IMG/VR virus record: IMGVR_UViG_3300021399_000113
Span: 74,607-138,606 of that record
Origin: a virus
Taxonomy: Duplodnaviria > Caudoviricetes
DNA: 64,000 nucleotides
Strand: one strand, 5' to 3'
Within the stretch, counting starts at the first letter, position 1, and each line of letters starts with the position of its first letter. Below the pieces are notes generated by a model. The model saw only the letters and a list, made by a program, of their open reading frames with translations. It ran no database searches and was not told the origin of the DNA. This document shows positions 7,959-54,884 of this stretch, one piece after another. The position numbers and the translations under genes are program-made.

Positions 7959-8165
7959 ATGAGCAGAAATGGTGGTAATACAGTAGTTAAGAAATACGGA
8001 TGTGGATTATCTACACTTTTAACAGTGGTATTTGTGGTACTTAAACTGTGCGGTGTAATTTCTTGGTCTTGGTTTTGGGTATTCTTCCCTCTTATTCTTG
8101 ATATTGGGCTGAGCATACTTATTGCTCTTATTGCCGTTATCGTTCTTGCCATTATTACGAGGTGA
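7959..8165 (+). CDS. Small membrane protein
   Basis: LTVVFVVLKLCGVISWSWFWVFFP motif common in phage membrane proteins. Confidence 0.75.
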   Translation: MSRNGGNTVVKKYGCGLSTLLTVVFVVLKLCGVISWSWFWVFFPLILDIGLSILIALIAVIVLAIITR

Positions 8166-8407
8166 GTATGGAGGCTTACAAACTTTTTCAGATACTTCAC
8201 AAAAGAACAGATTACTTTGGGTGGAATGGTCTCTATGATTTTGCACGTAGAACATTACTTCCAGAGGAATATGCTGAAAGGGAAAGGCAAGCACATCAGT
8301 CTTTACTGATGCTAAACACAGCGTTAGGATTTCTCTCAGCACACACTAATAGTGGTATGTCTTGGTTTAATCATGGAATAGGATTTGACGATGACGATTG
8401 GGATTGA
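8162..8407 (+). CDS. Hypothetical protein
   Basis: Coupled ORF. Confidence 0.55.
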   Translation: MSMEAYKLFQILHKRTDYFGWNGLYDFARRTLLPEEYAERERQAHQSLLMLNTALGFLSAHTNSGMSWFNHGIGFDDDDWD

Positions 8408-8660
8408 TTTTAGAAACGCTGACAAAAAGACAATAGATGAAGCCCTTGAAAAACTTATTAGAGGGGAAGTCGTAAGTATCACCCTTAATAATGCAGTTTC
8501 TGCATTATTAGCAGAGATGTATATTGTCAATAAGACCCTTAGCAGAGTGTGGGATTGGGATGACTGGCAAGGCACATTGATTTACAACGATACAGAGTTT
8601 GAAGTTCATGCTTACATGTGGACTGGAGACATCTATATCTTAAGAAAGACAGAGCAGTGA
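8385..8660 (+). CDS. Hypothetical protein
   Basis: Coupled ORF. Confidence 0.6.
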   Translation: MTMTIGIDFRNADKKTIDEALEKLIRGEVVSITLNNAVSALLAEMYIVNKTLSRVWDWDDWQGTLIYNDTEFEVHAYMWTGDIYILRKTEQ

Positions 8661-8851
8661 TGAAAAATTATAATTATGTAAAAATAAATGGAACTGTTAT
8701 AAAGCAGACTCAAAGCCAAGGCTGTGGGTTAAAACACTTCTTGTCCAATCTTTTTAAGCGACCAAAGGACAACATTTCTCAGTTCTCTTCTATCACTGTA
8801 AACAATAATGATGCTCATGTGGTGATTAAAAATGGTGATAAAGAAAAATAA
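8660..8851 (+). CDS. Hypothetical protein
   Basis: TGATG stop/start overlap. Confidence 0.55.
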   Translation: MKNYNYVKINGTVIKQTQSQGCGLKHFLSNLFKRPKDNISQFSSITVNNNDAHVVIKNGDKEK

Positions 8852-14268: not shown

Positions 14269-14297
14269 TTGACAAATTCTTTTTTCTATGCTATAAT
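14269..14297 (+). promoter_or_regulatory. sigmaA/70-type early promoter
   Basis: TTGACA-17-TATAAT with TG extension. Confidence 0.85.
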
Positions 14298-16316: not shown

Positions 16317-16323
16317 TTGTATA
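16317..16323 (+). promoter_or_regulatory. Candidate late-promoter motif TTGTATA
   Basis: The same motif precedes most virion-gene units. Confidence 0.5.
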
Positions 16324-16334
16324 TCAATAGTGAG

Positions 16335-16374
16335 TACCGATACAACTTAATATTAAGTTGTATCGGTATTTTTC
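16335..16374 (+). terminator. Perfect 34-bp palindrome plus T-tract
   Basis: TACCGATACAACTTAAT|ATTAAGTTGTATCGGTA followed by TTTTT. Confidence 0.7.
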
Positions 16375-16419
16375 ACTGAAAATATCAATTTCACTAACTG
16401 AATGAAAGAGTGAGTAACG

Positions 16420-16965
16420 ATGAAATTTAGACTAAAAGAATCCAAGCCCTCCAACATTATAAAACTTGCTGGCTTAAATGGTAACGCTTACAGTACATCA
16501 AAATATTTATATAAACAGATTGTGAGGGAGAATACAAAGTATAATTACGAGGGAGTAACACTCTCTGAAGGGATTGATTATACATTTGACCCTAAGAATT
16601 TGGGTGGTACAATTGTATTCTCTACCGATGTAAACGCAGTTGAAGCCTCAAAAAATAAAATTATAAATTGGGTAAAGCAAAAAATTGCCACTCTCAATAA
16701 CAGACTTCATGCTGTAAATAGAATAGATAAAATTGCACAGAAGCATGACCTTGCTGGCTGGACAGTAGGCAAGGGATTATCTGTTAGGTATACAGCAAAA
16801 AATGGTAAGGTGTTCGGAGAAAATAGTATATCTGTGGATATTGTTGGTATTTCCACTGACACCCTTTTAGAGATTGCAACAGAATTATGTAATTTATTTA
16901 ACCAAGAGGCAGTTCTTGTTAAAGACTACACAACCAAAGATATTTATCTTGTAAATGGAAAATAA
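16420..16965 (+). CDS. Putative SAM-lyase-fold protein with MKFRLKE leader
   Basis: RY...GENS.SV...LLEIATELC..FNQEAVLV resembles the C-terminal SAM lyase pattern. Confidence 0.5.
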   Translation: MKFRLKESKPSNIIKLAGLNGNAYSTSKYLYKQIVRENTKYNYEGVTLSEGIDYTFDPKNLGGTIVFSTDVNAVEASKNKIINWVKQKIATLNNRLHAVNRIDKIAQKHDLAGWTVGKGLSVRYTAKNGKVFGENSISVDIVGISTDTLLEIATELCNLFNQEAVLVKDYTTKDIYLVNGK

Positions 16966-16974
16966 GGAGGACAT

Positions 16975-18339
16975 ATGAATAATCTAATGTTAGAAAATGC
17001 AAACAGATTAGACGAGATTTATAGCACCTATGGCAGACACTATATTCCTCTCACAGAGGCTAATCTTAATCGCATTATTAAGGGACATGATTCTACTGGG
17101 TATGGTGTGTTAAGTGCCTCACGTGCTAACCTCTCAAAAGAAGAAAACGATAAACGCACAAAAGAACTTAAATCAAAAATAAATTCTTTGGGCTACTCTC
17201 ACGTTCCTGTGCTGGGTGGGTATAGAGAAGAGGGAGAGCCTAAAGCAAGTCTGGAAAAGTCCCTTATTGTTTATCCTTATAATTTACGCACAAAGGAATA
17301 TGCAGACCTCAATAAGTTTAAGGATGACCTTGTTGAGTTGGGCAAACATTACAATCAAGACACAGTAATGATTAAAGAACCCGACAAGAACCCTACTTAT
17401 ATTCGCTGTGCAGATAGACAAGCCGATATGGAATTTGATGATGGCTACACTACAAATGATACAGAAGAACCATTCTTTACAGCGCTTAAAAAGTGGAGTG
17501 ATTCTTCTCTTAATCGTAAAAGCCATAATTGGGATAAGGGCAAGCCTCAGAGATTTACACTTAAATCAAATGCTGTTTTTGAGGCATATATTGACCAACA
17601 ACCTATGAGTATTACATCAGAAGTACCTCCAAGATATGCTCTTGGTGAACTTTTTAAGGTTGGATTTACTGGGGAACTGACTGACACATTAAATGAGTCC
17701 AATAATTTCAGAAGAGTTAAACAAGCATTGTGGGGTGACCCTACTGGAAAGATTAGAACCTTTGCTATATTAACTGGTGAAAATCCTCTGGCTTGGGGAA
17801 ATGCTACAGATGATGAAGTTCTCGACCGATACAAAAAATGGCTTAATAATCCAAAAGAATACAATGATAAGATTACTAAGGGACTAAAGGCAGAACTTGT
17901 ACAGAAGTCATTAGAGCAGAATAAAGATAAAGCTTTAAGATATGGTGGGTTTAACTATGCTAAGATTAAAGGAAAGTATGGAGACATCGAGCACTCATTG
18001 ATGATTTTCAATATATCAAAAGAGGATGCTGAACACTTAGCAAGAGCCTATGGGCAAGAGAGTTTCTTTTTTGGTAAGGTATATCCATCATACACACATG
18101 TGGCTTATTACAAAACAACAAATGCTTGTGCAACATATAAATTGATAGAAATATCTGATGTTACAACTAAAGAAGATGGGGATGATTTCTTTAGTAAGTA
18201 TGGTTTTAAGTACAAGATTAACATGAGGGAATTTGGTGATGATGTAATCCCAGTAAAGAATGAGAATGAATTTCAAGAGAGTCTTACTGCACCAATGTTT
18301 CAAAGTAGAGCATCACATCGTAGAGAAGCATACAGATAA
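16975..18339 (+). CDS. Tandem two-domain SAM-lyase-like protein (T3 gp0.3 SAMase/Svi3-3-like)
   Basis: Domain 1: VLSASRANL..EN..R...GGYRE...EKS...LG..YNQDTV. Domain 2: FAILTGENP...GKY...EHS...LARAYGQES. Each starts after an LxE site. Confidence 0.65.
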   Translation: MNNLMLENANRLDEIYSTYGRHYIPLTEANLNRIIKGHDSTGYGVLSASRANLSKEENDKRTKELKSKINSLGYSHVPVLGGYREEGEPKASLEKSLIVYPYNLRTKEYADLNKFKDDLVELGKHYNQDTVMIKEPDKNPTYIRCADRQADMEFDDGYTTNDTEEPFFTALKKWSDSSLNRKSHNWDKGKPQRFTLKSNAVFEAYIDQQPMSITSEVPPRYALGELFKVGFTGELTDTLNESNNFRRVKQALWGDPTGKIRTFAILTGENPLAWGNATDDEVLDRYKKWLNNPKEYNDKITKGLKAELVQKSLEQNKDKALRYGGFNYAKIKGKYGDIEHSLMIFNISKEDAEHLARAYGQESFFFGKVYPSYTHVAYYKTTNACATYKLIEISDVTTKEDGDDFFSKYGFKYKINMREFGDDVIPVKNENEFQESLTAPMFQSRASHRREAYR

Positions 18340-18359
18340 TCGCATAGGAGCATAATTTA

Positions 18360-18935
18360 ATGATTATTTTAACTGGAAAGACTGCTACTGGAAAAGATAC
18401 AATTAAAAGAGAGTTGCTGAAAATCCCAGCACTCTCTCCTATTGTTACATACACAACACGCAAAAAGAGAAATAATGAAAAAGATGGGGTGGACTACCAT
18501 TTTGTATCTATTGACAAATATATGTCAATGAGAGATAATGGTGAATTAATTGCTTGTAATTGCTTTACTAAATCTAATGAGGGTGACGTTTGGTATGGAG
18601 TTGCCAAAAAGGATTTGATTAATGCAGATACAGATAATAAGGTAATCATTTTGGATGCACATGGGGTAAAGGATTTTCAGAAGATTAAAGATGAGGTAGG
18701 ATTTTCTGATATATTCTTAATTGACACTGTTCCAGAAGAACAGTGGGAAAGACTTATTTCACGTGGAAATGACACAGTAGAAGAGTGTCAGCGCAGAGTG
18801 CTGGCTGATAATACTGATTTTGCAGATATTCAGTACAATCATTTAATTGTTAACAGAAATGTATCTGATATTAAACAGATTGCATACACAATTTATACTT
18901 ACTATTTAATTGATAAAGGGTTTACAATGAGGTAG
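18360..18935 (+). CDS. gmk: Guanylate kinase-like nucleotide kinase
   Basis: GKTATGKDT P-loop; YTTR..R.NE.DGVDYHFV; WYG. Confidence 0.85.
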   Translation: MIILTGKTATGKDTIKRELLKIPALSPIVTYTTRKKRNNEKDGVDYHFVSIDKYMSMRDNGELIACNCFTKSNEGDVWYGVAKKDLINADTDNKVIILDAHGVKDFQKIKDEVGFSDIFLIDTVPEEQWERLISRGNDTVEECQRRVLADNTDFADIQYNHLIVNRNVSDIKQIAYTIYTYYLIDKGFTMR

Positions 18936-18938
18936 ATA

Positions 18939-20180
18939 ATGACAGACAACAGATATTTTGGTGCAATTAAAGACCCTATTGATAATAGGGATTTTGTTGC
19001 ATCTACAGTAGCATCAAAACAAAAAATAGAAATCCCAGAAACATATATTGTACCGCATTTGGATGAAATTCCAGTGTACAATCAAGGGGGCACAGGGTCA
19101 TGTGTGGCACATGCTCTTGCTACAGCCCTCGCTTTAGGTTACGCTCAAAAAGGTATTCAGATTGATTTCAGCCGTGGATTTATCTATGGTAACAGAAGTG
19201 AAGATGATTATCAAGGGTCAGGAATGATTCCTCGTGAAGCGTTAAAGCATCTTAACCATGAAGGTGATGTACACTATTCTGATTTCATCTATAACTTTGA
19301 AGTGCCATTAATCTTCAAAAAGTTCCAAAAAGAAAAAGAACGCTTATTACCTATTGCAAAAGATTATGTAATTGCAAACTATTACAAAGTAACAACACAG
19401 ACTGAAATCAAAACTGCCTTAATGACTACAGGAGCTGTTGTTGTATATTGTCCTGTTTACGGAGATTTTACTGATGACTTAAAAGCTGAGTGGCGAAGTT
19501 CTTATGATTATGCACATGAGGTTTGTTTAGTCGGGTGGGATGAAACAGGTTGGATTATTCGTAACAGTTGGGGAGACTCTTGGGGTAATAAAGGTAATGG
19601 GCATGTTGATTACAAATATGCTTATTGGGAAGAATATAACTTAAGCCTCTTAGACTTCTGGGCAATCACTCCTATATTCGAAGAAGATACAACCATCGAA
19701 GATGAGGAAGATACTGACGCTAATGAAGACATTAAGGAAGATGAACCAATTGAAGATGAAGAACCAATTGAAGAGGATATTGTAATAGATGATGATTCTT
19801 CAGATGATGACCTTAAAGAAGATATTAAGGAAGATGATACTGACGTTGAGGAAGAAGACGTTGACGTAGAAGAACATCAAGACACAGAAGACATTATCGA
19901 AGATACTACAGAGGAAGACTTTAAAGAAGACGTTGATACAGATGTAGAGGAAACAGATAATACAGAAGACGTTGATATTGACACAGAAGTTGATGATAAT
20001 GTCGATGATACTGAGACAGATACTGACACCGATGTAGATGACAACACTGATGTAGAGGATGACAATAAAGATGAATTGTTAGTCAACGATAAGCGGTTTA
20101 TCTCATTTGTAGAGGCAATTAAAGCAATTATCAAACAAATTCTTGATAGAATAAGGAACATATTTAATGGAAATAAGTAA
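18939..20180 (+). CDS. Papain-like (C1A) cysteine peptidase with long acidic low-complexity tail
   Basis: NQG..GSCVAHA, HEVCLVGW, IRNSWG..WG..G; D/E/T-rich repeats. Confidence 0.9.
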   Translation: MTDNRYFGAIKDPIDNRDFVASTVASKQKIEIPETYIVPHLDEIPVYNQGGTGSCVAHALATALALGYAQKGIQIDFSRGFIYGNRSEDDYQGSGMIPREALKHLNHEGDVHYSDFIYNFEVPLIFKKFQKEKERLLPIAKDYVIANYYKVTTQTEIKTALMTTGAVVVYCPVYGDFTDDLKAEWRSSYDYAHEVCLVGWDETGWIIRNSWGDSWGNKGNGHVDYKYAYWEEYNLSLLDFWAITPIFEEDTTIEDEEDTDANEDIKEDEPIEDEEPIEEDIVIDDDSSDDDLKEDIKEDDTDVEEEDVDVEEHQDTEDIIEDTTEEDFKEDVDTDVEETDNTEDVDIDTEVDDNVDDTETDTDTDVDDNTDVEDDNKDELLVNDKRFISFVEAIKAIIKQILDRIRNIFNGNK

Positions 20181-27268: not shown

Positions 27269-27835
27269 ATGGATTACAAAGCATTTCAGAGGGCATTTGG
27301 TGATTATACCACCCCCGACTTCACAGATTTAGTTGAAGATATTTTTGACAGAATTGAGTGTGACGATAGAGACGATTTATCAGAGTGTGTAATACAAGCA
27401 ATAGACGAAGGTCTGATTTATTATGATGATGAGTGGACATTATTAAAGCATTACTGCACACCACAGGATGCGGATTGGAATACAGCACTTGAGCAGTTCA
27501 TTGATGAAATGATTTCTTATGCTTCTTCTGTTTATGAATTTGAAGAGGAGGAAGACGATGAACTTGAAGAAGGTTGTAACGGCAAGAAGACGAGCAAGGA
27601 TGAGTTAAAGGAAAGTGCCTTTGATGGTGTTGAATTCAAAGATGGAATGAAAGAAAAGGAAATCCGTTACGCATTAAGGGAACTTGCAAAGTCACAGGGA
27701 TTTTATGGTAGAGTCCTCCGTAGGTTAGATGAGTTGCAAGAGGAAGAACCCGAAGCATATGCTTCCGCTATAAAAAAACTTGAAGAACAGCAGTTTAAAG
27801 ATATTCTTGATTTAGTAATGTTCTTTGAAACTTGA
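27269..27835 (+). CDS. Two-module protein: Ocr-like acidic N-domain plus LAKSQGFYGR domain
   Basis: DRDDLSECVIQAIDEGLIYYDD versus T7 Ocr [27 protein letters not shown]/LKES linker. Confidence 0.55.
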   Translation: MDYKAFQRAFGDYTTPDFTDLVEDIFDRIECDDRDDLSECVIQAIDEGLIYYDDEWTLLKHYCTPQDADWNTALEQFIDEMISYASSVYEFEEEEDDELEEGCNGKKTSKDELKESAFDGVEFKDGMKEKEIRYALRELAKSQGFYGRVLRRLDELQEEEPEAYASAIKKLEEQQFKDILDLVMFFET

Positions 27836-27855
27836 TTATAGATTATTTGGTGATT

Positions 27856-28446
27856 ATGAAGAAGAATAAATTAACAGAAAAATATAGTTTATACGATGAA
27901 GATAAAACTGCATATGGTGAAAGTCGTTTAGTTGTTCAGAAGTGTAAAGAGTTTTTAAGAGAAATCAATTCTGATATATTGGACGGGTCAAATGCCGATT
28001 TGCCAAATAACGTTGTAGAAATCTTTAAGAGGTTTGGTGGGGGTTGCAGAATATCAGAATTGAGACCACAAAGTTTTCGTTATGAGGGGTGGTTACCCAA
28101 CCCCTCTAAAGCATTTAATAGCGATAGATGGACAATAGGCGGTACATTTATTCAGCAGTACCTTTATGGGGATGCTAATAGGCTTGCAGAAGATTTAACA
28201 ATATGGTATTACAGAAATCAGTTAAATGGAAAGAAGATTCCTAATACTCCCGCATTAAATCGTATTATGAATAATATATCTGATATTGATTGGACTTCCA
28301 ATGTACAGGAAGAAGGATTATCTGTTGGTAGTGTAACGAACAGTTTAGGTAGTTTTAATAAATCAAACACAATGATTCCAACACCCACGAGAAAGGGGTC
28401 TCCCCTACATAGGCAAGGTGGAAAAAGGCGCAGTGTTCAAAAATGA
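27856..28446 (+). CDS. Hypothetical protein with MKKNKLTE leader (likely extends to 28570)
   Basis: Removing one C from the run at 28402-28405 gives ...KGSPYIGKVEKG...FHRTN*. Confidence 0.6.
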   Translation: MKKNKLTEKYSLYDEDKTAYGESRLVVQKCKEFLREINSDILDGSNADLPNNVVEIFKRFGGGCRISELRPQSFRYEGWLPNPSKAFNSDRWTIGGTFIQQYLYGDANRLAEDLTIWYYRNQLNGKKIPNTPALNRIMNNISDIDWTSNVQEEGLSVGSVTNSLGSFNKSNTMIPTPTRKGSPLHRQGGKRRSVQK

Positions 28447-33734: not shown

Positions 33735-33759
33735 CAAAACACAGAATATGTTGTATAAT
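33731..33759 (+). promoter_or_regulatory. Promoter (sigmaA-like, overlapping TTGTATA motif) for the maturase genes
   Basis: CTGACA-17-TATAAT. Confidence 0.6.
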
Positions 33760-34224: not shown

Positions 34225-36690
34225 ATGTCAAGGAACAGAAAGAAATTTGAACAATATCAAGATTTAATTGCAAGGTTATATCCCGAATTAACTAAACATA
34301 ATAGTAGTGATGACCAGTCTCACGGAGCAGAAAGAGTGCTGACAAGGACTGTCACTCTACAGGTGACTGACAAGTGCAATCTTGCTTGTAGTTATTGCTA
34401 CCAAATAAATAAGGGAGTAAGAAGAATGTCGCTTGAAACTGCAAAGAAGTTCATTGACCTGCTTCTTACAGGAGAAAAAGGTTTTAGCAATTATGTTGAC
34501 CCGTCATTCTCTCCTGCAATCGTTCTTGAATTTATCGGTGGTGAACCTTTTCTTGAAATAGAGTTAATTGACAAGGTTTGTGATTATTTCGTAGATAAAG
34601 CAATTGAATTAAGGCATCCTTGGGCAAAGAATTTTAGATTTAGTATCTGTTCGAATGGAGTTCTCTATAGAGACCCAAAGGTACAGAAGTTCTTAAACAA
34701 GTGGAAGAATAAATTATCATTCTCTATAACAATAGATGGTGACAAAGAATTACATGACACTTGCCGAGTATTCCCAGATGGGAGTCCTTCTTATGACATT
34801 GCCATAGAGGGTGCTAAGGATTGGATGGCAAAAGGAAATTATATGGGAAGTAAGATTACTATTGCTCCGCAAAATCTTCATTGTTTCAGTAGAGCACTTA
34901 AGCATATGATTTCTTTAGGGTATGATGAGATTAATTGTAACTGTGTTTATGAGGATGTATGGAAACCCGAACATGGGAAACAGTTATATGACCAATTAAA
35001 GGAAACAGCAGATTATCTTTTAGATAATAATTTAGAAAAAGATATATATGTATCTATTTTAGCAGAAGATAATTTTCATCCAAAGGATGTGAATGATTTA
35101 CAGACTTGGTGTTGGGGAAAAGGCACACCAATTTTAACCACGAAAGGATATAAACCAATAGAGGATATAGCGGTTGGTGATGAGGTATATACTCCGCAGG
35201 GGCATATTAAACCTGTCATTAATGTTATGAGTCATGTAGCTGATAATTGTGTGGAGATTAGCGGTTGTGGTATTCTGCCTATGATATGCACTAAAGACCA
35301 TAGATTGTGGGCTTCTCCGTTTGATTATCGGGGTTGGAAAAATACCCCTCATTATAAACCTTTTGGTGCTTACAGCATTGAAGAAATCATTGATACAAAA
35401 TATCCTACTCGAAGTAGAATTAAGACAGGTGTATTGCCTAATAATCGTACAGTTCATGTAGACCCTAATGTAGCTTACTTACTTGGTCGTACAATAGGTG
35501 ATGGTTGGGTAGCCGATGATATACCCGCTGTATGTTGTGGCAAAGATGAACTGTCCGAAGTGATAAAATGTTTCAATGATGCTAAAATTGCATATCGTAT
35601 TTCAGAGTCAAATACCACATATGATTTTTATGCAACAAAAAAACTTAATATGGGTAACGATAATTATGCTCTTTATAGTAAGTTATGTTTAGATATGGGG
35701 CACAAATCAGTAAATAAACACATTCCTTCCGAGTGCTTTAATTGGGATGATGAATCCCTTGAGGCATTATTACAAGGTTATGTGAGTGCAGATGGGCACA
35801 TTAGAGCAAATCGAAATATATATGTCATTAAAACTTCATCAAAAAGACTTGCAGAAGATGTTATGTTAGTGTGCCGTACACTTGGATATAACCCTATGTG
35901 TGATACCCCTCAACGGGTTAACGGGAAAACCGAAACAATTATGGGTCGGTTGACGCACAGAAATGGGGACGTATTTACGGTGCGTTGGAGTTTCGAAAAG
36001 CACAATGGTAAATTCTACTATGAGGATGAAGACGGGATGTTTACATCTAAACTTCGGGTTGTGTCAGCACCCACTCAAGCTGTGTATAACATAACAGTAG
36101 CCGATGACCATTCCTACATTGCGGGTTCACTTGCCTCTAAAAATTGTGGGGGACTTGGTGACATGCTTGCCTGTGACCCCGATGGTAAATTATTCCCTTG
36201 TATTAGATATATGGAAAGTTCATTAGGGAACACTGTCCCTCCTGTTATTATTGGAGATGTCGATAATGGTGTGTGCCAAAGACCGCACGAACAGAAGTTA
36301 CTCTGTGATATGTGTGCGGTCAATAGACGTACATATAATACAGATGAATGTTTCTATTGCCCTATTTATCAAGGGTGTGCAGAATGCTCCGCTTATAACT
36401 ATCAGTTAAGTGGTGGAGATTTCAACAAACGTGCAACGTGTATCTGCATTACACATAAAGCAAGATGCTTAGCAAATGCTTACTATTGGTCAAAATTTTA
36501 CGAAAAGAACGAACCTCAGAGCAAATTTAAGTTTTATATACCAGACGAGTGGGCATTACAAGTTATTGACAAAGATGAATTAGATATGATAAAATCATTA
36601 CCGAACATAGAGCTTTGTCAAACAACATGGCAAGAATTGAGGGACAAAGACTTAAATGGTGAAGATAAGCAAAAAGAAGAAGTTCAGTAA
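34225..36690 (+). CDS. Radical SAM/SPASM peptide maturase (CXXX-repeat target family, TIGR04115-like), intein-containing
   Basis: CNLACSYC, FIGGEPFL, SITIDG; SPASM CGG...DG.LFPC...CFYCP...GC..C...C. Confidence 0.92.
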   Translation: MSRNRKKFEQYQDLIARLYPELTKHNSSDDQSHGAERVLTRTVTLQVTDKCNLACSYCYQINKGVRRMSLETAKKFIDLLLTGEKGFSNYVDPSFSPAIVLEFIGGEPFLEIELIDKVCDYFVDKAIELRHPWAKNFRFSICSNGVLYRDPKVQKFLNKWKNKLSFSITIDGDKELHDTCRVFPDGSPSYDIAIEGAKDWMAKGNYMGSKITIAPQNLHCFSRALKHMISLGYDEINCNCVYEDVWKPEHGKQLYDQLKETADYLLDNNLEKDIYVSILAEDNFHPKDVNDLQTWCWGKGTPILTTKGYKPIEDIAVGDEVYTPQGHIKPVINVMSHVADNCVEISGCGILPMICTKDHRLWASPFDYRGWKNTPHYKPFGAYSIEEIIDTKYPTRSRIKTGVLPNNRTVHVDPNVAYLLGRTIGDGWVADDIPAVCCGKDELSEVIKCFNDAKIAYRISESNTTYDFYATKKLNMGNDNYALYSKLCLDMGHKSVNKHIPSECFNWDDESLEALLQGYVSADGHIRANRNIYVIKTSSKRLAEDVMLVCRTLGYNPMCDTPQRVNGKTETIMGRLTHRNGDVFTVRWSFEKHNGKFYYEDEDGMFTSKLRVVSAPTQAVYNITVADDHSYIAGSLASKNCGGLGDMLACDPDGKLFPCIRYMESSLGNTVPPVIIGDVDNGVCQRPHEQKLLCDMCAVNRRTYNTDECFYCPIYQGCAECSAYNYQLSGGDFNKRATCICITHKARCLANAYYWSKFYEKNEPQSKFKFYIPDEWALQVIDKDELDMIKSLPNIELCQTTWQELRDKDLNGEDKQKEEVQ
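35110..36144 (+). mobile_element. Intein (345 aa) with LAGLIDADG homing endonuclease in the radical SAM maturase
   Basis: Starts CWGKGTPILT; block B CTKDHRLW; YLLGRTIGDG and LLQGYVSADG; ends VYNITV.DDHSYIAG...SKN|C; splicing restores QTW-CGG. Confidence 0.88.
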
Positions 36691-38084: not shown

Positions 38085-38113
38085 TTGACATTTTGTAATA
38101 ATTAGTGTATAAT
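38085..38113 (+). promoter_or_regulatory. sigmaA/70-type promoter
   Basis: TTGACA-17-TATAAT. Confidence 0.8.
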
Positions 38114-38146: not shown

Positions 38147-38740
38147 ATGAATATGAGATTTAAATTAGTAGAAAATTTTACATTAACTGAGGGCAGTGGG
38201 TTATCCCGTATCTGGCAATATACTCATAACAATCAAAATTTTGCTATAATCGGCACACAAGACAAAGACACCAAAAAGGATAGGACTAACGAGCTAACGT
38301 CCTTGCTTCGTGATATGATGGATAATCAAGTAAGAATGAAGAAGACTGTAGGCAAACCAATGATTACCTACAAAAAGTTAGAGGGGCATTATATTTATGA
38401 CGATGGAACGCAGGGGACTGAAAATTCTTTCTTGGTTAACAATATAACTAAAGACGAGGCATTAGAGTTAGGAAGGGCAGTAAATCAAGAAAGTATCTTA
38501 TGGAAAGACGATGACTTCTTTGGATATATTTATTGCTCAGATGGTCATCCAGATATGACGTTTTCGAGAGACAATAAGAATATGAGTTTCAATAAAGACG
38601 ATGTATATGCCTTTGGCTCAAGGCTTAAAAGCAAACATAATGAGGGGCAGGGGTTTACCTTTATTGCTGAACATTATGTGTATGATAACTCTAAGAAATC
38701 ACGTAAAAAAGAAGTGCTATTTAAGCTTCATGCAGAATAA
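38147..38740 (+). CDS. SAM-lyase-like protein with MRFKLVE..LTE leader
   Basis: LTE|GSGLSRI..FAII...EGHY...ENSFLV.NI....A..LG...NQESILW. Confidence 0.6.
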   Translation: MNMRFKLVENFTLTEGSGLSRIWQYTHNNQNFAIIGTQDKDTKKDRTNELTSLLRDMMDNQVRMKKTVGKPMITYKKLEGHYIYDDGTQGTENSFLVNNITKDEALELGRAVNQESILWKDDDFFGYIYCSDGHPDMTFSRDNKNMSFNKDDVYAFGSRLKSKHNEGQGFTFIAEHYVYDNSKKSRKKEVLFKLHAE

Positions 38741-49453: not shown

Positions 49454-50998
49454 ATGCCTCAAGATACAGTAAATGATGGTTTATTACATTTTACTGACGA
49501 GAATGGAATAGAGAAAGCCATATTAGGTACATTAGAAGGTGCTTGTGCAGACTTCATTGCTCCCACTCGTAATGGCAGATTATATAATGATGAACTGTGG
49601 GGGGAAGTTTTTGAAAAGAACCCTATAGTGAATGAGTTATTTGAAAATGGTGGTATCGTTGGTGAATTAGACCACCCAGCAAATTATAATTCAGAGGGTG
49701 TCGAAGACAGAGATGAAAGCGACACTTCCAGAACGGCAATTCTGTTAAAGGAAAAGCCAGTAAAAAAAGATGGTAAATATTGGGCAAAGTTTTTAATTCT
49801 CAATACACCATTAGGTAAGATTGCGTATACATTAGCAAAGGCTGGATTTAAATTTGGTGTAAGTTCAAGAGGGTCTGGAGATGTTCTTACAGATGATAAT
49901 GGTAATGAATATGTCGACCCACTTACTTATGATTTTAAAGCATTTGACTTAGTATTGTTACCAGCAGTTAAGTCTGCAAGGTTAAGTCTTGTTACTGAGT
50001 CATTAGATACCAAAAAGAAATTTAATTATAAAGAAGAACTTACAGAGCAAATCAATTCTGCTGATGATGAGGGTAAAAAGTTAATAACAGAAACCCTTGA
50101 CCATTTAGGAATACGCTATCAATCAACCGATAAGGTTGTTAATATAGAGGATGAGCCTACTAAAGAAGAAGTTGTCAATGACAAGTCAGATTTAATTAAG
50201 CAACTCCAAGAAGCATTATTGAATAACCAAAAGTTAGAAAAAGAGATTACTAATCTTCAAGAAAAATTATCAGTTTGTTATACAAAGGAAAGTCGTAACG
50301 AAGAAGTAATTGAAAAGTATAAGACTTCAATTCAGAAGTTAACCGAGTCACTAAAAATTGCTAAAGTAGAATCCCTAAAAATTCCAAAGTTACAGACTGT
50401 AATTTCTGGTCTTAAGGAAGATATTAATACTAAGGATGCAAAGGTTGCAGAATTAACTGAAAAGTTAAGAGTAAGTGCAAAGAATAAAAAGGGATTAAAT
50501 GAATCTCTTGCTAAACAAGAGAATGATGTAAAAGAATTAACTAATAGAGTACATACCTTATCTGAATCCTTAAAGGAAACCAGAGTAAAGGCAAAACAAG
50601 ATGTTGAAACTCTTACTGAAAAGTTAGAAGACTTAAAGAAGGATTCCGCTATTAAGAAAAAGGAATACTCAGATAAGTTAAAACAGTCCAATGGACTTGT
50701 TGAGAAATATAAATCAATCGCAAAGACAGTTGTAAATGAGTATATTAGTTCTCAAGCGAAAATGATTGGAGTAGGCACTGCTGAAATAACCAATAAACTT
50801 CCTGCTAATTATTCATTAAATGATATAACTGCTGTTTGTGAAAGTTTAAGAGATACAAAGATAGCATTAAATAAATTACCATTTGATACAAGAAGAATGG
50901 CAAATGCAAAAATTGTTGCTAATCAACCAAAAGAGCCAATTCTTCCAACAAATGAAGATGATATAGTTGATGAATCTTTGTTATCATTTTTACGCTAA
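49454..50998 (+). CDS. Prohead protease (T4 gp21-like) fused to a coiled-coil scaffold
   Basis: NGRLY, GELDHP, TP.G, GVSSRGSG, FDLV..P; long coiled coil with many LxES sites. Confidence 0.9.
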   Translation: MPQDTVNDGLLHFTDENGIEKAILGTLEGACADFIAPTRNGRLYNDELWGEVFEKNPIVNELFENGGIVGELDHPANYNSEGVEDRDESDTSRTAILLKEKPVKKDGKYWAKFLILNTPLGKIAYTLAKAGFKFGVSSRGSGDVLTDDNGNEYVDPLTYDFKAFDLVLLPAVKSARLSLVTESLDTKKKFNYKEELTEQINSADDEGKKLITETLDHLGIRYQSTDKVVNIEDEPTKEEVVNDKSDLIKQLQEALLNNQKLEKEITNLQEKLSVCYTKESRNEEVIEKYKTSIQKLTESLKIAKVESLKIPKLQTVISGLKEDINTKDAKVAELTEKLRVSAKNKKGLNESLAKQENDVKELTNRVHTLSESLKETRVKAKQDVETLTEKLEDLKKDSAIKKKEYSDKLKQSNGLVEKYKSIAKTVVNEYISSQAKMIGVGTAEITNKLPANYSLNDITAVCESLRDTKIALNKLPFDTRRMANAKIVANQPKEPILPTNEDDIVDESLLSFLR

Positions 50999-51372: not shown

Positions 51373-52110
51373 ATGAATATGTATGGTTATGTTTATAAAA
51401 CGACTGACCTAAGAAATAATAAAATCTATATTGGTCAACATAAAAGTGAACAATATGATGATAAATATTATGGGTCGGGAATCATAATTACTTCTTTGAT
51501 AAAGAAATATGGTACACAGAATTTTAAGAATGAGATTTTGTGTGAATGTGCTTCTGCGGAAGAACTAAACGATAAAGAAATAGAATTCATTGCACAGTAT
51601 GATGCAAGAAATCCAGAAATCGGATATAACATTGCAACGGGTGGTGCATTTGGTGATTCTGGTTATCATTTAGGAATGCTTGGAAAAACTCAAACAGATA
51701 AGCAAAAGGCTTGTGCTTCAAAAGCTTGCTCTTACAAAAGGGATAAGAAATTTTGTGAAAGGATGGCACAGCAGACCACAGCCTTGTGGGAAGATGATAA
51801 GTACAGAGAGTTAATGTCCAAGAAACGCAAAGGTAAAATTCCTTGGAACAAAGGGATGACCATAGATGAAGAGACTAAAGAAAAGATTTCCAAGTCAGTA
51901 TCTAAAAGCCTTAAAGATAAATATGAGGCAATGACCGATGAAGAAAAGCTTGCACGTGGTAAAGCAATCTCTGCTGGAAAGAAAGGCAAGGTTGCAGTAA
52001 CTGATGGCAATAAAACTTACTTTGTTTCTTCTGATGAAGTGGATGATTACATACATAAAGGATATTACAAGATGTCCTTACAGAGATATAAGAAACTTAA
52101 TAAACAATAA
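51373..52110 (+). CDS. GIY-YIG homing endonuclease (intron 1)
   Basis: GYVY...KIYIGQH...YYGSG...E...GYN; NUMOD-like C-terminus. Confidence 0.92.
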   Translation: MNMYGYVYKTTDLRNNKIYIGQHKSEQYDDKYYGSGIIITSLIKKYGTQNFKNEILCECASAEELNDKEIEFIAQYDARNPEIGYNIATGGAFGDSGYHLGMLGKTQTDKQKACASKACSYKRDKKFCERMAQQTTALWEDDKYRELMSKKRKGKIPWNKGMTIDEETKEKISKSVSKSLKDKYEAMTDEEKLARGKAISAGKKGKVAVTDGNKTYFVSSDEVDDYIHKGYYKMSLQRYKKLNKQ

Positions 52111-52387
52111 ACAAGGTGAATTATTGGAAACTCTCTTAACATAGTACAGAGTGTTAAGAGACAATCAATAGCCAAGTTCATATATTTTATATGAAAAGGT
52201 TTAACGACTATCGAAAGCATAGTATGTGAGAAATACACATACGAAGAAGTGAGTAGAGTAGGAGATAGTATCTCCGAAGTGCCTTGCATCTTTATTGCGG
52301 TAGCAGTAATAAAGATGGTGATATAGTCTGAACACTATAGTGATATAGTGAGAATAATCGGAAACGGATTATTCATAACACACTTTG

Positions 52388-52600: not shown

Positions 52601-53359
52601 ATGTATGGTTATATTTATAAAACAACAAATTTAATAACCAATAAAATCTATGTTGGACAAAAGAAATCAAATAAGTTTCTTGGAACAAAATATTTAGGTA
52701 GTGGAACGCATTTAAAAGAATCTGTAAAACATCACGGCAAAGAGAATTTTACTGTTGAGTTTATAGATAGTGCAGAAACCGCTACTGAATTAAATGAAAA
52801 AGAAATTTATTGGATAGATAAATTAGACGCACGAAATCCTCAAGTCGGATATAACATCTCTCTTGGTGGTGATGGTAATACATCTGGTACATCTTGGAAT
52901 AAAGGTCTTACCAAAGAACAAGATGAAAGGTTGATTTGTTCAGAGCAGACCAGAATGAAACGAAGTAAATCGTTGAAAAGGTCTTATGCTGAAGGACAAC
53001 ACAAAGTCAACTTTACTGATGAGATTCGTGCTAAGATGAGTGCTAAAGCAAAGGCAAGACCTCATCTTCCAACTACCAATGGTAAGAAAGTAATAAATAA
53101 TGGAGAAACAAATAAAATGGTTTATCCACAAGAACTTGAAACTTACTTATCAAATGGTTGGGTAGTTGGTAAATTACCCAGTAATAAACCAGCGTGGAAT
53201 AAAGGGTTGACTAAAGACACAAATGAGAGTGTAAACAAATACTCAAAGGCAAGACAAAAGCTAATAGCAAGTGGTAATCGAGTTGGTTTTTGTAATGCTA
53301 AAGGGAATCATTTTTCTAAAGGTCAAAAGGTTAAAGAGTTTGTTGCTGAAAACTGTTAA
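52601..53359 (+). CDS. GIY-YIG homing endonuclease (intron 2)
   Basis: GYIY...KIYVGQ...YLGSG...E...GYN; WNKGLTK repeats. Confidence 0.92.
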   Translation: MYGYIYKTTNLITNKIYVGQKKSNKFLGTKYLGSGTHLKESVKHHGKENFTVEFIDSAETATELNEKEIYWIDKLDARNPQVGYNISLGGDGNTSGTSWNKGLTKEQDERLICSEQTRMKRSKSLKRSYAEGQHKVNFTDEIRAKMSAKAKARPHLPTTNGKKVINNGETNKMVYPQELETYLSNGWVVGKLPSNKPAWNKGLTKDTNESVNKYSKARQKLIASGNRVGFCNAKGNHFSKGQKVKEFVAENC

Positions 53360-53677: not shown

Positions 53678-54884
53678 ACCTAACCTTATTGCTAACGAAA
53701 TCGTACTTGTAAAACCTCTTCCAAGTATGACAGGCTACATCAGCTACATGAAGTATTCTTATGGTAGCACAAAGGGTGGCACTGAAGCTGGTACAGAGTT
53801 AAACAGCCCATTCAAACTTGGTTTAGTTGATAAGAACTATACTTCAAGGTTTGTTCCAGAGGCTAAGCCCGCTGTAGCAAGTGGTGGTGTTGTTGCTGGT
53901 ACTCTTACATGGACACCAGTTGTACCTAATTTCGTAGAATTCGTAATTGGTACTGACGTATATCGTGATGGTGGCGATGGTAAGATTTACAAGGGCAGAA
54001 CTGTTACTACAAAAGACACAACTGATAGTTGGGGTAATGTAACTCCTGCTGGTACAGTTGTTAATGCTGGTACAGAAGTTACTGGTTCTTCTATCAACTA
54101 TCAGACAGGTGCTTATACATTTACAGATGTTACATTAACAGAAGCTACAGCAGTTATGTGTAACTATGTATATGATAACGAAGTTGTTCCTCAGAACGAC
54201 CTTCCTACTATTGTTGGTAAGATGGATGGTATCGCTCTTGTCGCTAAGCCAAGACGTATTGCCATCTACTACAATCAGTTAGCACAATTTCAGGCTAAAA
54301 CGGATTATGGTTTCGACCTTGCTACTCAGTTAGCAGAACAGGCAGTTGGTACACTCTCTGCTGAAATTGATACTGAAATCACAGACTTACTTATTGATAA
54401 CGCTACACTTAAGCCTTCACTTACTTTCAATAAGACTGTTCCTATTGGTATCACAAAGCACGAGCACTATGCTGACTTCACTGAAATCCTTGAGTTAGCT
54501 AAGAAAGAAATCTATGATGTAACACGTAGATTCGTTCCTAACTACATGATTTGTGCAAGTGATATTCTTCCTATACTTGCTTTCATTCCAGAGTTCAAAC
54601 AGGCGTCTACTGGTCAGATAAACGGGCCATATTTCGCAGGTACTCTTGGAAGTCTGAAGGTATTTATTGTACCTCGTACAGATTTCGCTGGCAAGTTCGT
54701 AATTGGTGTAAATGGTAACGACTATATGACAGCGGCTGCCGTCTATGCACCTTACATGCCTATCATCCCAAGTGGTGAAGTAACTTACGCAGATGGTCTT
54801 ACATCTAAGGGTTGGGCTACTATGTACGACCTTAAGATACTTAACCCTCTGTTACTTATCAAGGGACAAATCGTTGCTGAATAA
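53678..54884 (+). CDS. Major capsid protein (T4 gp23-like), exon 3
   Basis: PNLIANEIVLVKP..SMTG; L.AEID.EI; YAPY.P gp23 signatures. Confidence 0.93.

Follow-up and report, generated by a model that had tools for sequence, protein, structure and literature searches.

Three diverged domains predicted to belong to the S-adenosylmethionine lyase superfamily, encoded by two adjacent genes of an uncultured phage with a T4-like head

Background

S-adenosylmethionine (SAM) lyases are a known phage counter to SAM-dependent defences such as Type I restriction and BREX (bacteriophage exclusion), and a sister activity degrades SAM-AMP (AMP, adenosine monophosphate), the signal of type III CRISPR. Family members such as T3 gp0.3 and Svi3-3 are homotrimers in which the active site sits between subunits. 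Single-domain phage SAM lyases are already known, including one virion-associated case. Here we describe two adjacent open reading frames (ORFs), ORF 16420 and ORF 16975, from a 64,000-nucleotide stretch of viral DNA that corresponds to bases 74607-138606 of a 138.6-kb IMG/VR contig (IMGVR_UViG_3300021399_000113; completeness estimate 83%). The whole stretch is called the window below, and all positions refer to it unless the contig or a relative is named. By profile searches and structure prediction, the SAM-lyase superfamily is represented in the two genes by three diverged domains: a T3-type domain (module A) and a DUF3293-type domain (module B) in ORF 16975, and a Svi3-3-type domain in the C-terminal part of ORF 16420. 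What is new is that three subfamilies are used in tandem and as multiple paralogs, that two large metagenomic families are assigned to this fold, that a DNA cassette carries module B and that there is a link to a shared leader of the cargo type.

Guo et al. found that active SAMases strictly conserve just three residues, Gly, Glu and Gln, and in Svi3-3 the glycine (Gly56) packs against the ribose, where a side chain would not fit (PMC7877911). The T3 SAMase blocks the host SAM synthetase by binding to it and has been solved in complex with MetK (PMC8406200). SAM-AMP lyases have the same fold and the catalytic Glu and Gln in common with SAM lyases, and a phage SAM-AMP lyase with an N-terminal extension cleaves SAM-AMP and not SAM (PMC12255297). 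The virion-associated case is ORF6 of the cyanophage S-CREM2, which was detected by mass spectrometry in virions purified on caesium chloride (CsCl) and is proposed by the authors to enter the host together with the DNA (PMC10665884). In T4, Alt and the internal proteins reach the prohead by way of propeptides of 7-10 residues that end in (L/I)-x-E, which gp21 then removes (PMC9026906).

Three domains with a predicted SAM-lyase fold

ORF 16975 (16975-18339, + strand) encodes a protein of 454 amino acids (P0002) with two SAM-lyase-fold modules in tandem; its start codon is 10 nucleotides past the stop codon of ORF 16420 and is preceded by an AGGAGG ribosome-binding site. Module A spans about residues 20-235, with a core at residues 36-198 (17080-17568, + strand). 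The Pfam family S-AdoMet_lyase (PF23780) matches residues 45-147 with 65.8 bits (E 4.9e-18, cut-off 28) and DUF3293 (PF11697) matches residues 52-131, inside the same stretch. In the AlphaFold2 (AF2) model of the whole protein, the mean predicted local distance difference test score (pLDDT) is 64, and 80-94 in the core of module A. When residues 36-198 of this model were compared with known structures, the best match was the T3 SAM lyase 8bb1_E (Z 11.8, root mean square deviation (rmsd) 2.6, 131 of 147 residues), followed by a second chain of the same enzyme, 7ock_J (Z 11.5), and by Svi3-3 (Z 7.3); generic ferredoxin folds remained below 6.5. Judged by the PF23780 score and the structural match to T3, the likeness of module A to SAM lyases is far above chance.

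At the sequence level, a phmmer search with the whole of P0002 found no match among Protein Data Bank (PDB) sequences; the profile of module A had the T3 SAM lyase as its sole match there (E 0.18). Module A carries the motifs GVLSASRANLSKEENDKR (residues 44-61), GGYRE (81-85), LEKS (93-96) and NQDT (127-130), and the residues that are invariant in its family of 11 homologues (G81-G-Y83, E94-K-S96, Q128-D129) coincide with T3 residues in the profile alignment. This alignment reproduces one that had been made by eye between the first domain and T3 gp0.3 in an earlier, sequence-only reading of the same DNA. Module A is likely an active T3-type SAM lyase.

ORF 16420 (16420-16965, + strand) encodes a protein of 181 amino acids (P0001), in which an N-terminal extension precedes a core SAM-lyase-like domain (residues 45-181; 16552-16962, + strand). 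Its AF2 model (pLDDT 78, predicted template modelling score (pTM) 0.75) retrieved Svi3-3 as the first Foldseek match (E 1.2e-5), then the T3 SAMase, SAM-AMP lyase and CutA. VIA-align also ranked Svi3-3 first: Z was 9.0 for Svi3-3 (6znb; rmsd 3.3, 111 of 125 residues) and 8.6 for a second Svi3-3 structure, but 7.0 for SAM-AMP lyase, with unrelated ferredoxin-like chains reaching up to 6.8. Svi3-3 is also the best PDB sequence match of the family profile, with an E-value of 0.17 that is not significant alone. The profile brings Y58, E69-N-S71 and Q104-E105 of Svi3-3 into register with Y124, E134-N-S136 and Q162-E163 of ORF 16420, which lie in the motifs SVRY (121-124), GENS (133-136) and NQEA (161-164); the complete signature of the protein is V122-R-Y124, E134-N-S136, Q162-E163. 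Y124, E134 and S136 do not vary among 36 homologues, and Q162 and E163 hardly do. The family is large (676 cluster representatives at E <= 0.001 in an exhaustive profile search): several of its members score as PF23780, some are fused to other domains, and one, P0092, is a fusion of an ORF-16420-type domain with a canonical SAM-lyase domain that scores 37.8 bits. A tblastn search with ORF 16420 gave no match among GenBank phages.

Module B occupies residues 236-454 of P0002 (17680-18336, + strand) and is SAM-lyase-like of the DUF3293 type. Its assignment comes from profile-profile comparison: hhalign aligned the module-B profile (25 sequences) to the module-A profile with a probability of 95.6% (E 1.3e-8), with G-x-Y, E-x-S and Q-E/D in register. 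The corresponding signature of module B is G333-K-Y335, E339-H-S341, Q361-E-S363, within the motifs KGKYG (332-336), IEHS (338-341) and GQES (360-363), and G333, E339, Q361 and S363 are among the eight columns that are invariant in the 25 sequences; these include all three residues, Gly, Glu and Gln, that are strictly conserved in active SAMases. The ESM Atlas clusters nearest to module B carry PF11697 and PF23780, and an Atlas model of residues 240-444 has template modelling (TM) scores of 0.56/0.52 against a cluster in which PF23780 accounts for 88%. The order of strands and helices predicted for module B in the AF2 model of the whole protein is beta-alpha-beta-beta-alpha-beta plus a hairpin. 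As with ORF 16420, tblastn of module B against GenBank phages found no match, and within the collections searched both families come from metagenomes only.

The three domains are distant from each other: direct BLASTP among them is weak, and hhalign gave the ORF-16420 family a probability of 64% with module A and 32% with module B. What they have kept in common are the G-x-Y, E-x-S and Q-E(D) residues, save for a Val in place of Gly in ORF 16420. The sequence-only reading had named three SAM-lyase-like domains and had read the pattern Y / E-x-S / Q-E in the second domain of ORF 16975 and in ORF 16420. Both claims hold: every motif it quoted is in place, and the domains are recovered by Pfam and structure (module A), by hhalign (module B) and by structural comparison (ORF 16420), with module A falling to T3 and ORF 16420 to Svi3-3. 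Two large metagenomic families, the ORF-16420 type with its 676 representatives and the DUF3293 type, are thereby tied to the SAM-lyase fold. A full-text literature search for DUF3293 found no paper.

Module B as a cassette, and further paralogs

A 670-nucleotide cassette that bears module B (17673-18342, + strand) is missing from the near relative L026. Aligned to positions 1789-1806 of L026, it is a clean indel with flanks of 88% and 83% DNA identity. In L026, the homologue of ORF 16420 is followed by a gene for module A without module B, whose product of 237 amino acids ends in T-L-A-E; where this protein stops, P0002 reads through T-L-N-E into module B. The L-N-E at the junction of the modules (P0002 residues 239-241; 17689-17697, + strand) has a counterpart in another relative, L003, in which a stand-alone module B (8045-8713) begins with MRFKLSE-SNNYRRVK; the junction in P0002 reads TDTLNE-SNNFRRVK.

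Profile searches of the whole contig identified two further paralogs, which brings the SAM-lyase-fold domains of this one phage to five, from three sequence subfamilies. The fourth, P0281 (38153-38740, + strand), matches DUF3293 with 19.6 bits, the module-B profile with E 4.8e-10 and the module-A profile with E 1.3e-5; it starts with M-R-F-K-L-V-E and has a perfect TTGACA-17-TATAAT promoter at 38085. The fifth is outside the window (contig 27486-28277, 263 amino acids) and exceeds the DUF3293 cut-off with 33 bits; it has F in place of the Tyr and K in place of the Glu of Q-E. Within the paper library searched, no report of tandem SAM lyases or of a five-domain arrangement was found.

Homologues elsewhere have the module arrangements A, B, A-B, B-A, B-B and A-B-B. 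An obligate heterotrimer of the three domains was considered and rejected: homologues of ORF 16420 are solitary in the distant relatives L003 and L004, indicating that the gene pair is no obligate complex, and L026 has no module B. In another phage group, five lyase-like proteins (P0010, P0012, P0020, P0017 and P0019) have a different, basic N-terminal leader in common, M-N/D-E-L-E-K-R-A-K...K-K-Q...S-P-F-T followed by an A-F-N-H-type motif; this leader is possibly a targeting segment of another kind.

Function of the SAM-lyase-fold proteins

From the homology, the fold, the conserved ligand-binding residues and the number of paralogs observed, we infer catalysis, substrate, oligomeric state and targeted defence. 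Sequence and models suggest that the set probably functions in counter-defence against SAM-dependent defences, by cleavage of SAM or of a SAM-derived signal. Module A, at least, would probably bind SAM at a subunit interface and would convert it to methylthioadenosine and homoserine lactone; loss of SAM would starve SAM-dependent defences (Type I/III restriction, BREX), and the diverged paralogs may act on the same substrate or on a SAM-derived one. Counter-defence is favoured by context: the homologue P0026 is surrounded by genes for a Tad2-like protein, Sequestin and several DNA methylases, and the homologue in S-CREM2 has a DNA adenine methylase gene as its neighbour. The contig of P0026 (L010, 1-11623) has this tandem lyase-like protein in a counter-defence island with ASCH/DUF3850, adjoining NrdD.

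Several points weigh against the view that all three domains are SAM-cleaving counter-defence enzymes. The match of ORF 16420 to PF23780 (residues 126-179) reaches only 20.8-22.8 bits, under the threshold of 28, and position 122 is Val in this copy (GTT, 16783-16785), against Gly in 90% or more of its homologues; since this is the strictly conserved, ribose-packing Gly position, ORF 16420 is maybe impaired. Module B matches DUF3293 with about 21-22 bits, below the cut-off of 25, and PF23780 not at all; its Tyr-Glu hairpin is 7 residues shorter than in module A, and its profile finds only chance matches among PDB sequences, for example geminin. The fold of the superfamily is a PII-like ferredoxin fold, and the PII-like fold also occurs as a plain ligand sensor. 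Finally, genes for an N6_N4 DNA methylase (95.9 bits, contig 51373-52206) and for a radical SAM enzyme (34225-36690) show that the phage itself requires SAM, so that a lasting removal of SAM would harm the phage too. How a phage with SAM lyases can afford to need SAM for these two enzymes is a paradox.

The impairment suggested by Val122 bears on a possible loss of catalysis. Diverged domains could be PII-like sponges or sensors, or could bind and block the host SAM synthetase in the manner of the T3 SAMase, catalysis being secondary or lost; besides Val122, this would fit the paralog at contig 27486 with its replaced Tyr and Glu, the fact that the T3 SAMase, the nearest structure to module A, was solved bound to MetK (7ock, 8bb1), and the presence of CutA and PII proteins after the SAM lyases in the fold lists. 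We regard it as quite improbable: hundreds of diverged homologues show no variation in the substrate-holding Glu and Gln or in the Ser that follows the Glu, which fits a retained active site, and the homologue P0029, 90% identical to ORF 16420, keeps Gly at position 122. The Val codon may be a true variant or an assembly error, and the ORF 16420 copy may be weakened by it.

The SAM requirement of the phage would be easier to reconcile with a different substrate. If ORF 16420 and/or module B cleaved a SAM-derived signal such as SAM-AMP and not SAM, they would act against type III CRISPR like the candidate AcrIIIB4 and would spare SAM for the methylase and the radical SAM enzyme. SAM-AMP lyases have the fold and the catalytic Glu and Gln in common with the domains described here, their phage member is also N-terminally extended, and several paralogs per genome suggest distinct substrates. 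ORF 16420 is, however, closer to Svi3-3 than to SAM-AMP lyase (Z 9.0 versus 7.0) and module A is far closer to the T3 lyase. SAM-AMP as the substrate appears unlikely, if less so than a loss of catalysis, and cleavage of SAM or a SAM-derived signal in counter-defence is the function that we prefer for the set as a whole.

A leader peptide shared by six ORFs

ORF 16420 starts with the heptapeptide M-K-F-R-L-K-E (16420-16440, + strand), a candidate capsid-targeting propeptide that ends in an L-x-E site of the cleavage type. On the whole contig, a nucleotide pattern encoding M-(K/R)-F-(K/R)-L-x-E has six forward matches, all at ORF starts, with none on the reverse strand and none in the control. 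The tagged ORFs start at 16420, 29141, 38153 and 40640 of the window and at contig 27486 and 60830. Three of them encode lyase-type proteins (ORF 16420, P0281 at 38153 and the paralog at contig 27486), the others an acidic ferritin-like protein of 228 amino acids (29141), a protein of 493 amino acids (40640) and one of 177 amino acids (contig 60830). Among close relatives the tag is kept, while the following 40 residues drift. With a looser pattern, an [LI]xE that ends at residues 6-9, 26 of the 224 ORFs were found versus 11.4 expected (P 9e-5). Two other readings of the leader were rejected: it is not a duplicated 5' DNA segment, as each of the six ORFs has different DNA upstream, and it is not part of the lyase fold, as three of the tagged proteins match no lyase profile.

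The phage also has candidates for the machinery that such a leader would need. It encodes a Gp23-type major capsid protein (53727-54884; PF07068, 76.4 bits, over the cut-off) as well as portal and terminase, and is an uncultured phage with a T4-like head. A protease candidate of 514 amino acids (49454-50998) matches phrog_207, head maturation protease (E 1.6e-29), and its N-terminal part matches Peptidase_S77, the T4 gp21 family, with 26.3 bits (cut-off 27); its C-terminal part is a coiled coil that carries 12 of the 14 [LI]xE sites of the protein.

The sequence-only reading had noted an L-x-E site before each domain and had proposed virion-delivered pro-enzymes. The sites are indeed present (LKE 5-7 and LSE 48-50 in P0001, LTE 26-28 and LNE 239-241 in P0002), but their counts, 3 in P0001 versus about 0.8 expected and 6 in P0002 versus about 2.9, are not clearly above chance alone, and some L-x-E sites sit within folded helices or strands of the domains.

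Delivery in the virion would nevertheless be one explanation of the shared leader: the N-terminal tag would load proteins into the prohead, the gp21/S77-like protease would cut after the Glu of L-x-E, which would also part modules A and B, and the enzymes would be injected with the DNA and hit SAM before any phage gene is expressed. This is compatible with a tag that is common to six ORFs, three of them non-lyases, whose upstream DNA is not conserved, with the over-representation of [LI]xE at residues 6-9, with the Gp23-type capsid protein and with an S77-like protease fused to an LxE-rich coiled coil. There is a precedent in T4, where gp21 cuts the head-targeting propeptides of Alt and the internal proteins (PMC9026906), and the module-A homologue of S-CREM2 is found in purified virions (PMC10665884). 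The A/B junction LNE-SNNF resembles the leader end of the stand-alone module B of L003, and a small injected dose would suit the SAM requirement of the phage.

Other data speak against delivery in the virion. ORF 16975 begins with M-N-N-L-M-L-E and has no tag, the internal L-x-E sites are close to chance in number and partly inside folded elements, and LTE 26-28 is in a segment that is conserved out to the cyanophage homologue, for which reason it may be structural. The tagged paralog at 38153 is behind a perfect sigma-A (early-type) promoter, relatives of the genes are in replication and counter-defence regions and not in head modules, no [LI]xE precedes residue 137 of the capsid protein, and the Peptidase_S77 match is just below the Pfam cut-off. 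We regard virion delivery as plausible but less likely than not; on this analysis, packaging of ORF 16420 is possible but not the likelier outcome, and packaging of ORF 16975 is less likely still.

A tentative model can be built on the leader, in which a seven-residue tag would load mixed capsid cargo that includes several SAM-lyase-fold enzymes, and the prohead protease would free them at L-x-E and split tandem modules. Injection would then briefly destroy SAM, or a SAM-derived alarm signal, at genome entry and spare the SAM needed later by the methylase and the radical SAM enzyme of the phage, and module cassettes such as the 670-nucleotide one with module B would be traded among relatives as ready-tagged cargo. 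The shared leader offers a testable way to ask whether metabolite-degrading counter-defence enzymes arrive pre-made in the virion, and one cyanophage proteome already hints at virion delivery of such enzymes.

Promoter elements and hairpin upstream of ORF 16420

Straight after the stop codon of the gene upstream of ORF 16420 is a TTGTATA box (16317-16323, + strand), a candidate phage-specific promoter element. On the whole contig, 10 of the 35 + strand copies of TTGTATA are intergenic versus 0 of 17 on the - strand, with intergenic DNA making up 7% of the contig; TTGTATA is thus a real, strand-specific signal that is enriched between genes. The box at 16317 is conserved in the near relatives L025 and L026. 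Perfect TTGACA-17-TATAAT promoters occur more than 25 times on the contig, nearly all upstream of about 24.3 kb of the window, and this sharp boundary indicates an early region that is read by the host polymerase and marked by sigma-A promoters. No sigma-A consensus promoter is present in 16376-16420, ahead of ORF 16420.

The sequence-only reading had taken the box, in place of a sigma-A promoter, to mark a late operon within the early region. The box and the missing sigma-A consensus stand, but 'late' is unproven: three intergenic TTGTATA copies belong to the contig's upstream half, where sigma-A promoters abound, the boxes at 33751 and 54908 overlap the -10 element of a sigma-A-like promoter (with a -35 element identical to TTGACA or one mismatch off), and a hairpin lies between the box and the gene. 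This terminator-like hairpin of 16 base pairs, followed by a U-run (16334-16374, + strand), has a minimum free energy of -35.1 kcal/mol (z -6.19; none of 200 shuffled sequences matches its stability), and L025 and L026 keep its outer 9 base pairs and the T-run. By its sequence, it may be the terminator of the upstream operon, which is driven from a perfect promoter at 14269, or a 5' stem-loop of a transcript initiated at the box. At four boxes (16317, 28576, 31163 and 54908) a hairpin is found within 3-12 nucleotides downstream, and two of these hairpins, those at 16317 and 31163, are terminator-like with a U-run and come after the stop codon and the box and before the ribosome-binding site.

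Genomic neighbourhood

The contig has a GC content of about 35% and carries almost every gene on the + strand. A blastn search found no DNA-level match for the locus among GenBank phages. Just downstream of ORF 16975 (18360-20180) are a guanylate kinase (PF00625, 67.7 bits) and then a cysteine protease of the papain family (PF00112, 49.9 bits), whose last 190 or so residues form a C-terminal tail rich in Asp and Glu; the order of guanylate kinase and cysteine protease recurs in L025 and L026. The radical SAM enzyme bears Hint and LAGLIDADG domains, which indicate an intein. Two GIY-YIG-type genes (51373-52110 and 52601-53359) are situated between the protease and capsid genes: the former matches SegE_GIY-YIG and NUMOD3, the latter was assigned by sequence likeness only.

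Comparison with known systems

Among described enzymes, the T3 SAM lyase gp0.3 (7ock, 8bb1) is closest to module A, with which it shares the fold over 131 of 147 residues, PF23780 and the G-x-Y, E-K and Q-D residues. Unlike T3 gp0.3, module A has 35 additional N-terminal residues and a conserved C-terminal extension to residue 235, is fused to a second lyase-like module and is not encoded by the first gene of the genome. The Svi3-3 SAM lyase (6zm9, 6zmg, 6znb) is the top structural match of ORF 16420, with Tyr, Glu-x-Ser and Gln-Glu in register; ORF 16420 differs from it by an identity of about 18%, a 44-residue N-terminal extension with the leader, the Val in place of Gly and a Pfam score below threshold. 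The SAM-AMP lyases of C. botulinum and of the phage candidate AcrIIIB4 (9gab, 9gad) have the PII-like fold with Glu and Gln, and match ORF 16420 with Z 7.0; the AcrIIIB4-type phage member resembles ORF 16420 in its N-terminal extension too, but its match to ORF 16420 is below that of Svi3-3.

Among GenBank phages, module A is matched best by ORF6 of S-CREM2, a T4-like cyanophage (tblastn E 3e-6; pairwise identity 30%, E 6e-14), which itself scores 70 bits with PF23780. The two are homologous including the N-terminal L-x-E-x-x-L-x-R, and both phages have a T4-like head. ORF6 has an L-E-E at residues 8-10. ORF6 adjoins a DNA adenine methylase, with a gene for an EcoRI-type endonuclease further upstream. 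Unlike ORF 16975, ORF6 has one lyase domain with a long, basic tail of low complexity and no partner of the ORF-16420 or module-B type; mass spectrometry showed it to be packaged, while for the phage described here packaging is a possibility suggested by the genes. The internal proteins and Alt of T4 are like ORF 16420 in that a short (L/I)-x-E leader is common to unrelated proteins of a phage with a gp23-type capsid and a gp21-type protease, of which the phage described here has a candidate. The tag sequence differs from that of T4, and the putative cargo would be metabolite-degrading enzymes and not DNA-binding inhibitors or an ADP-ribosyltransferase.

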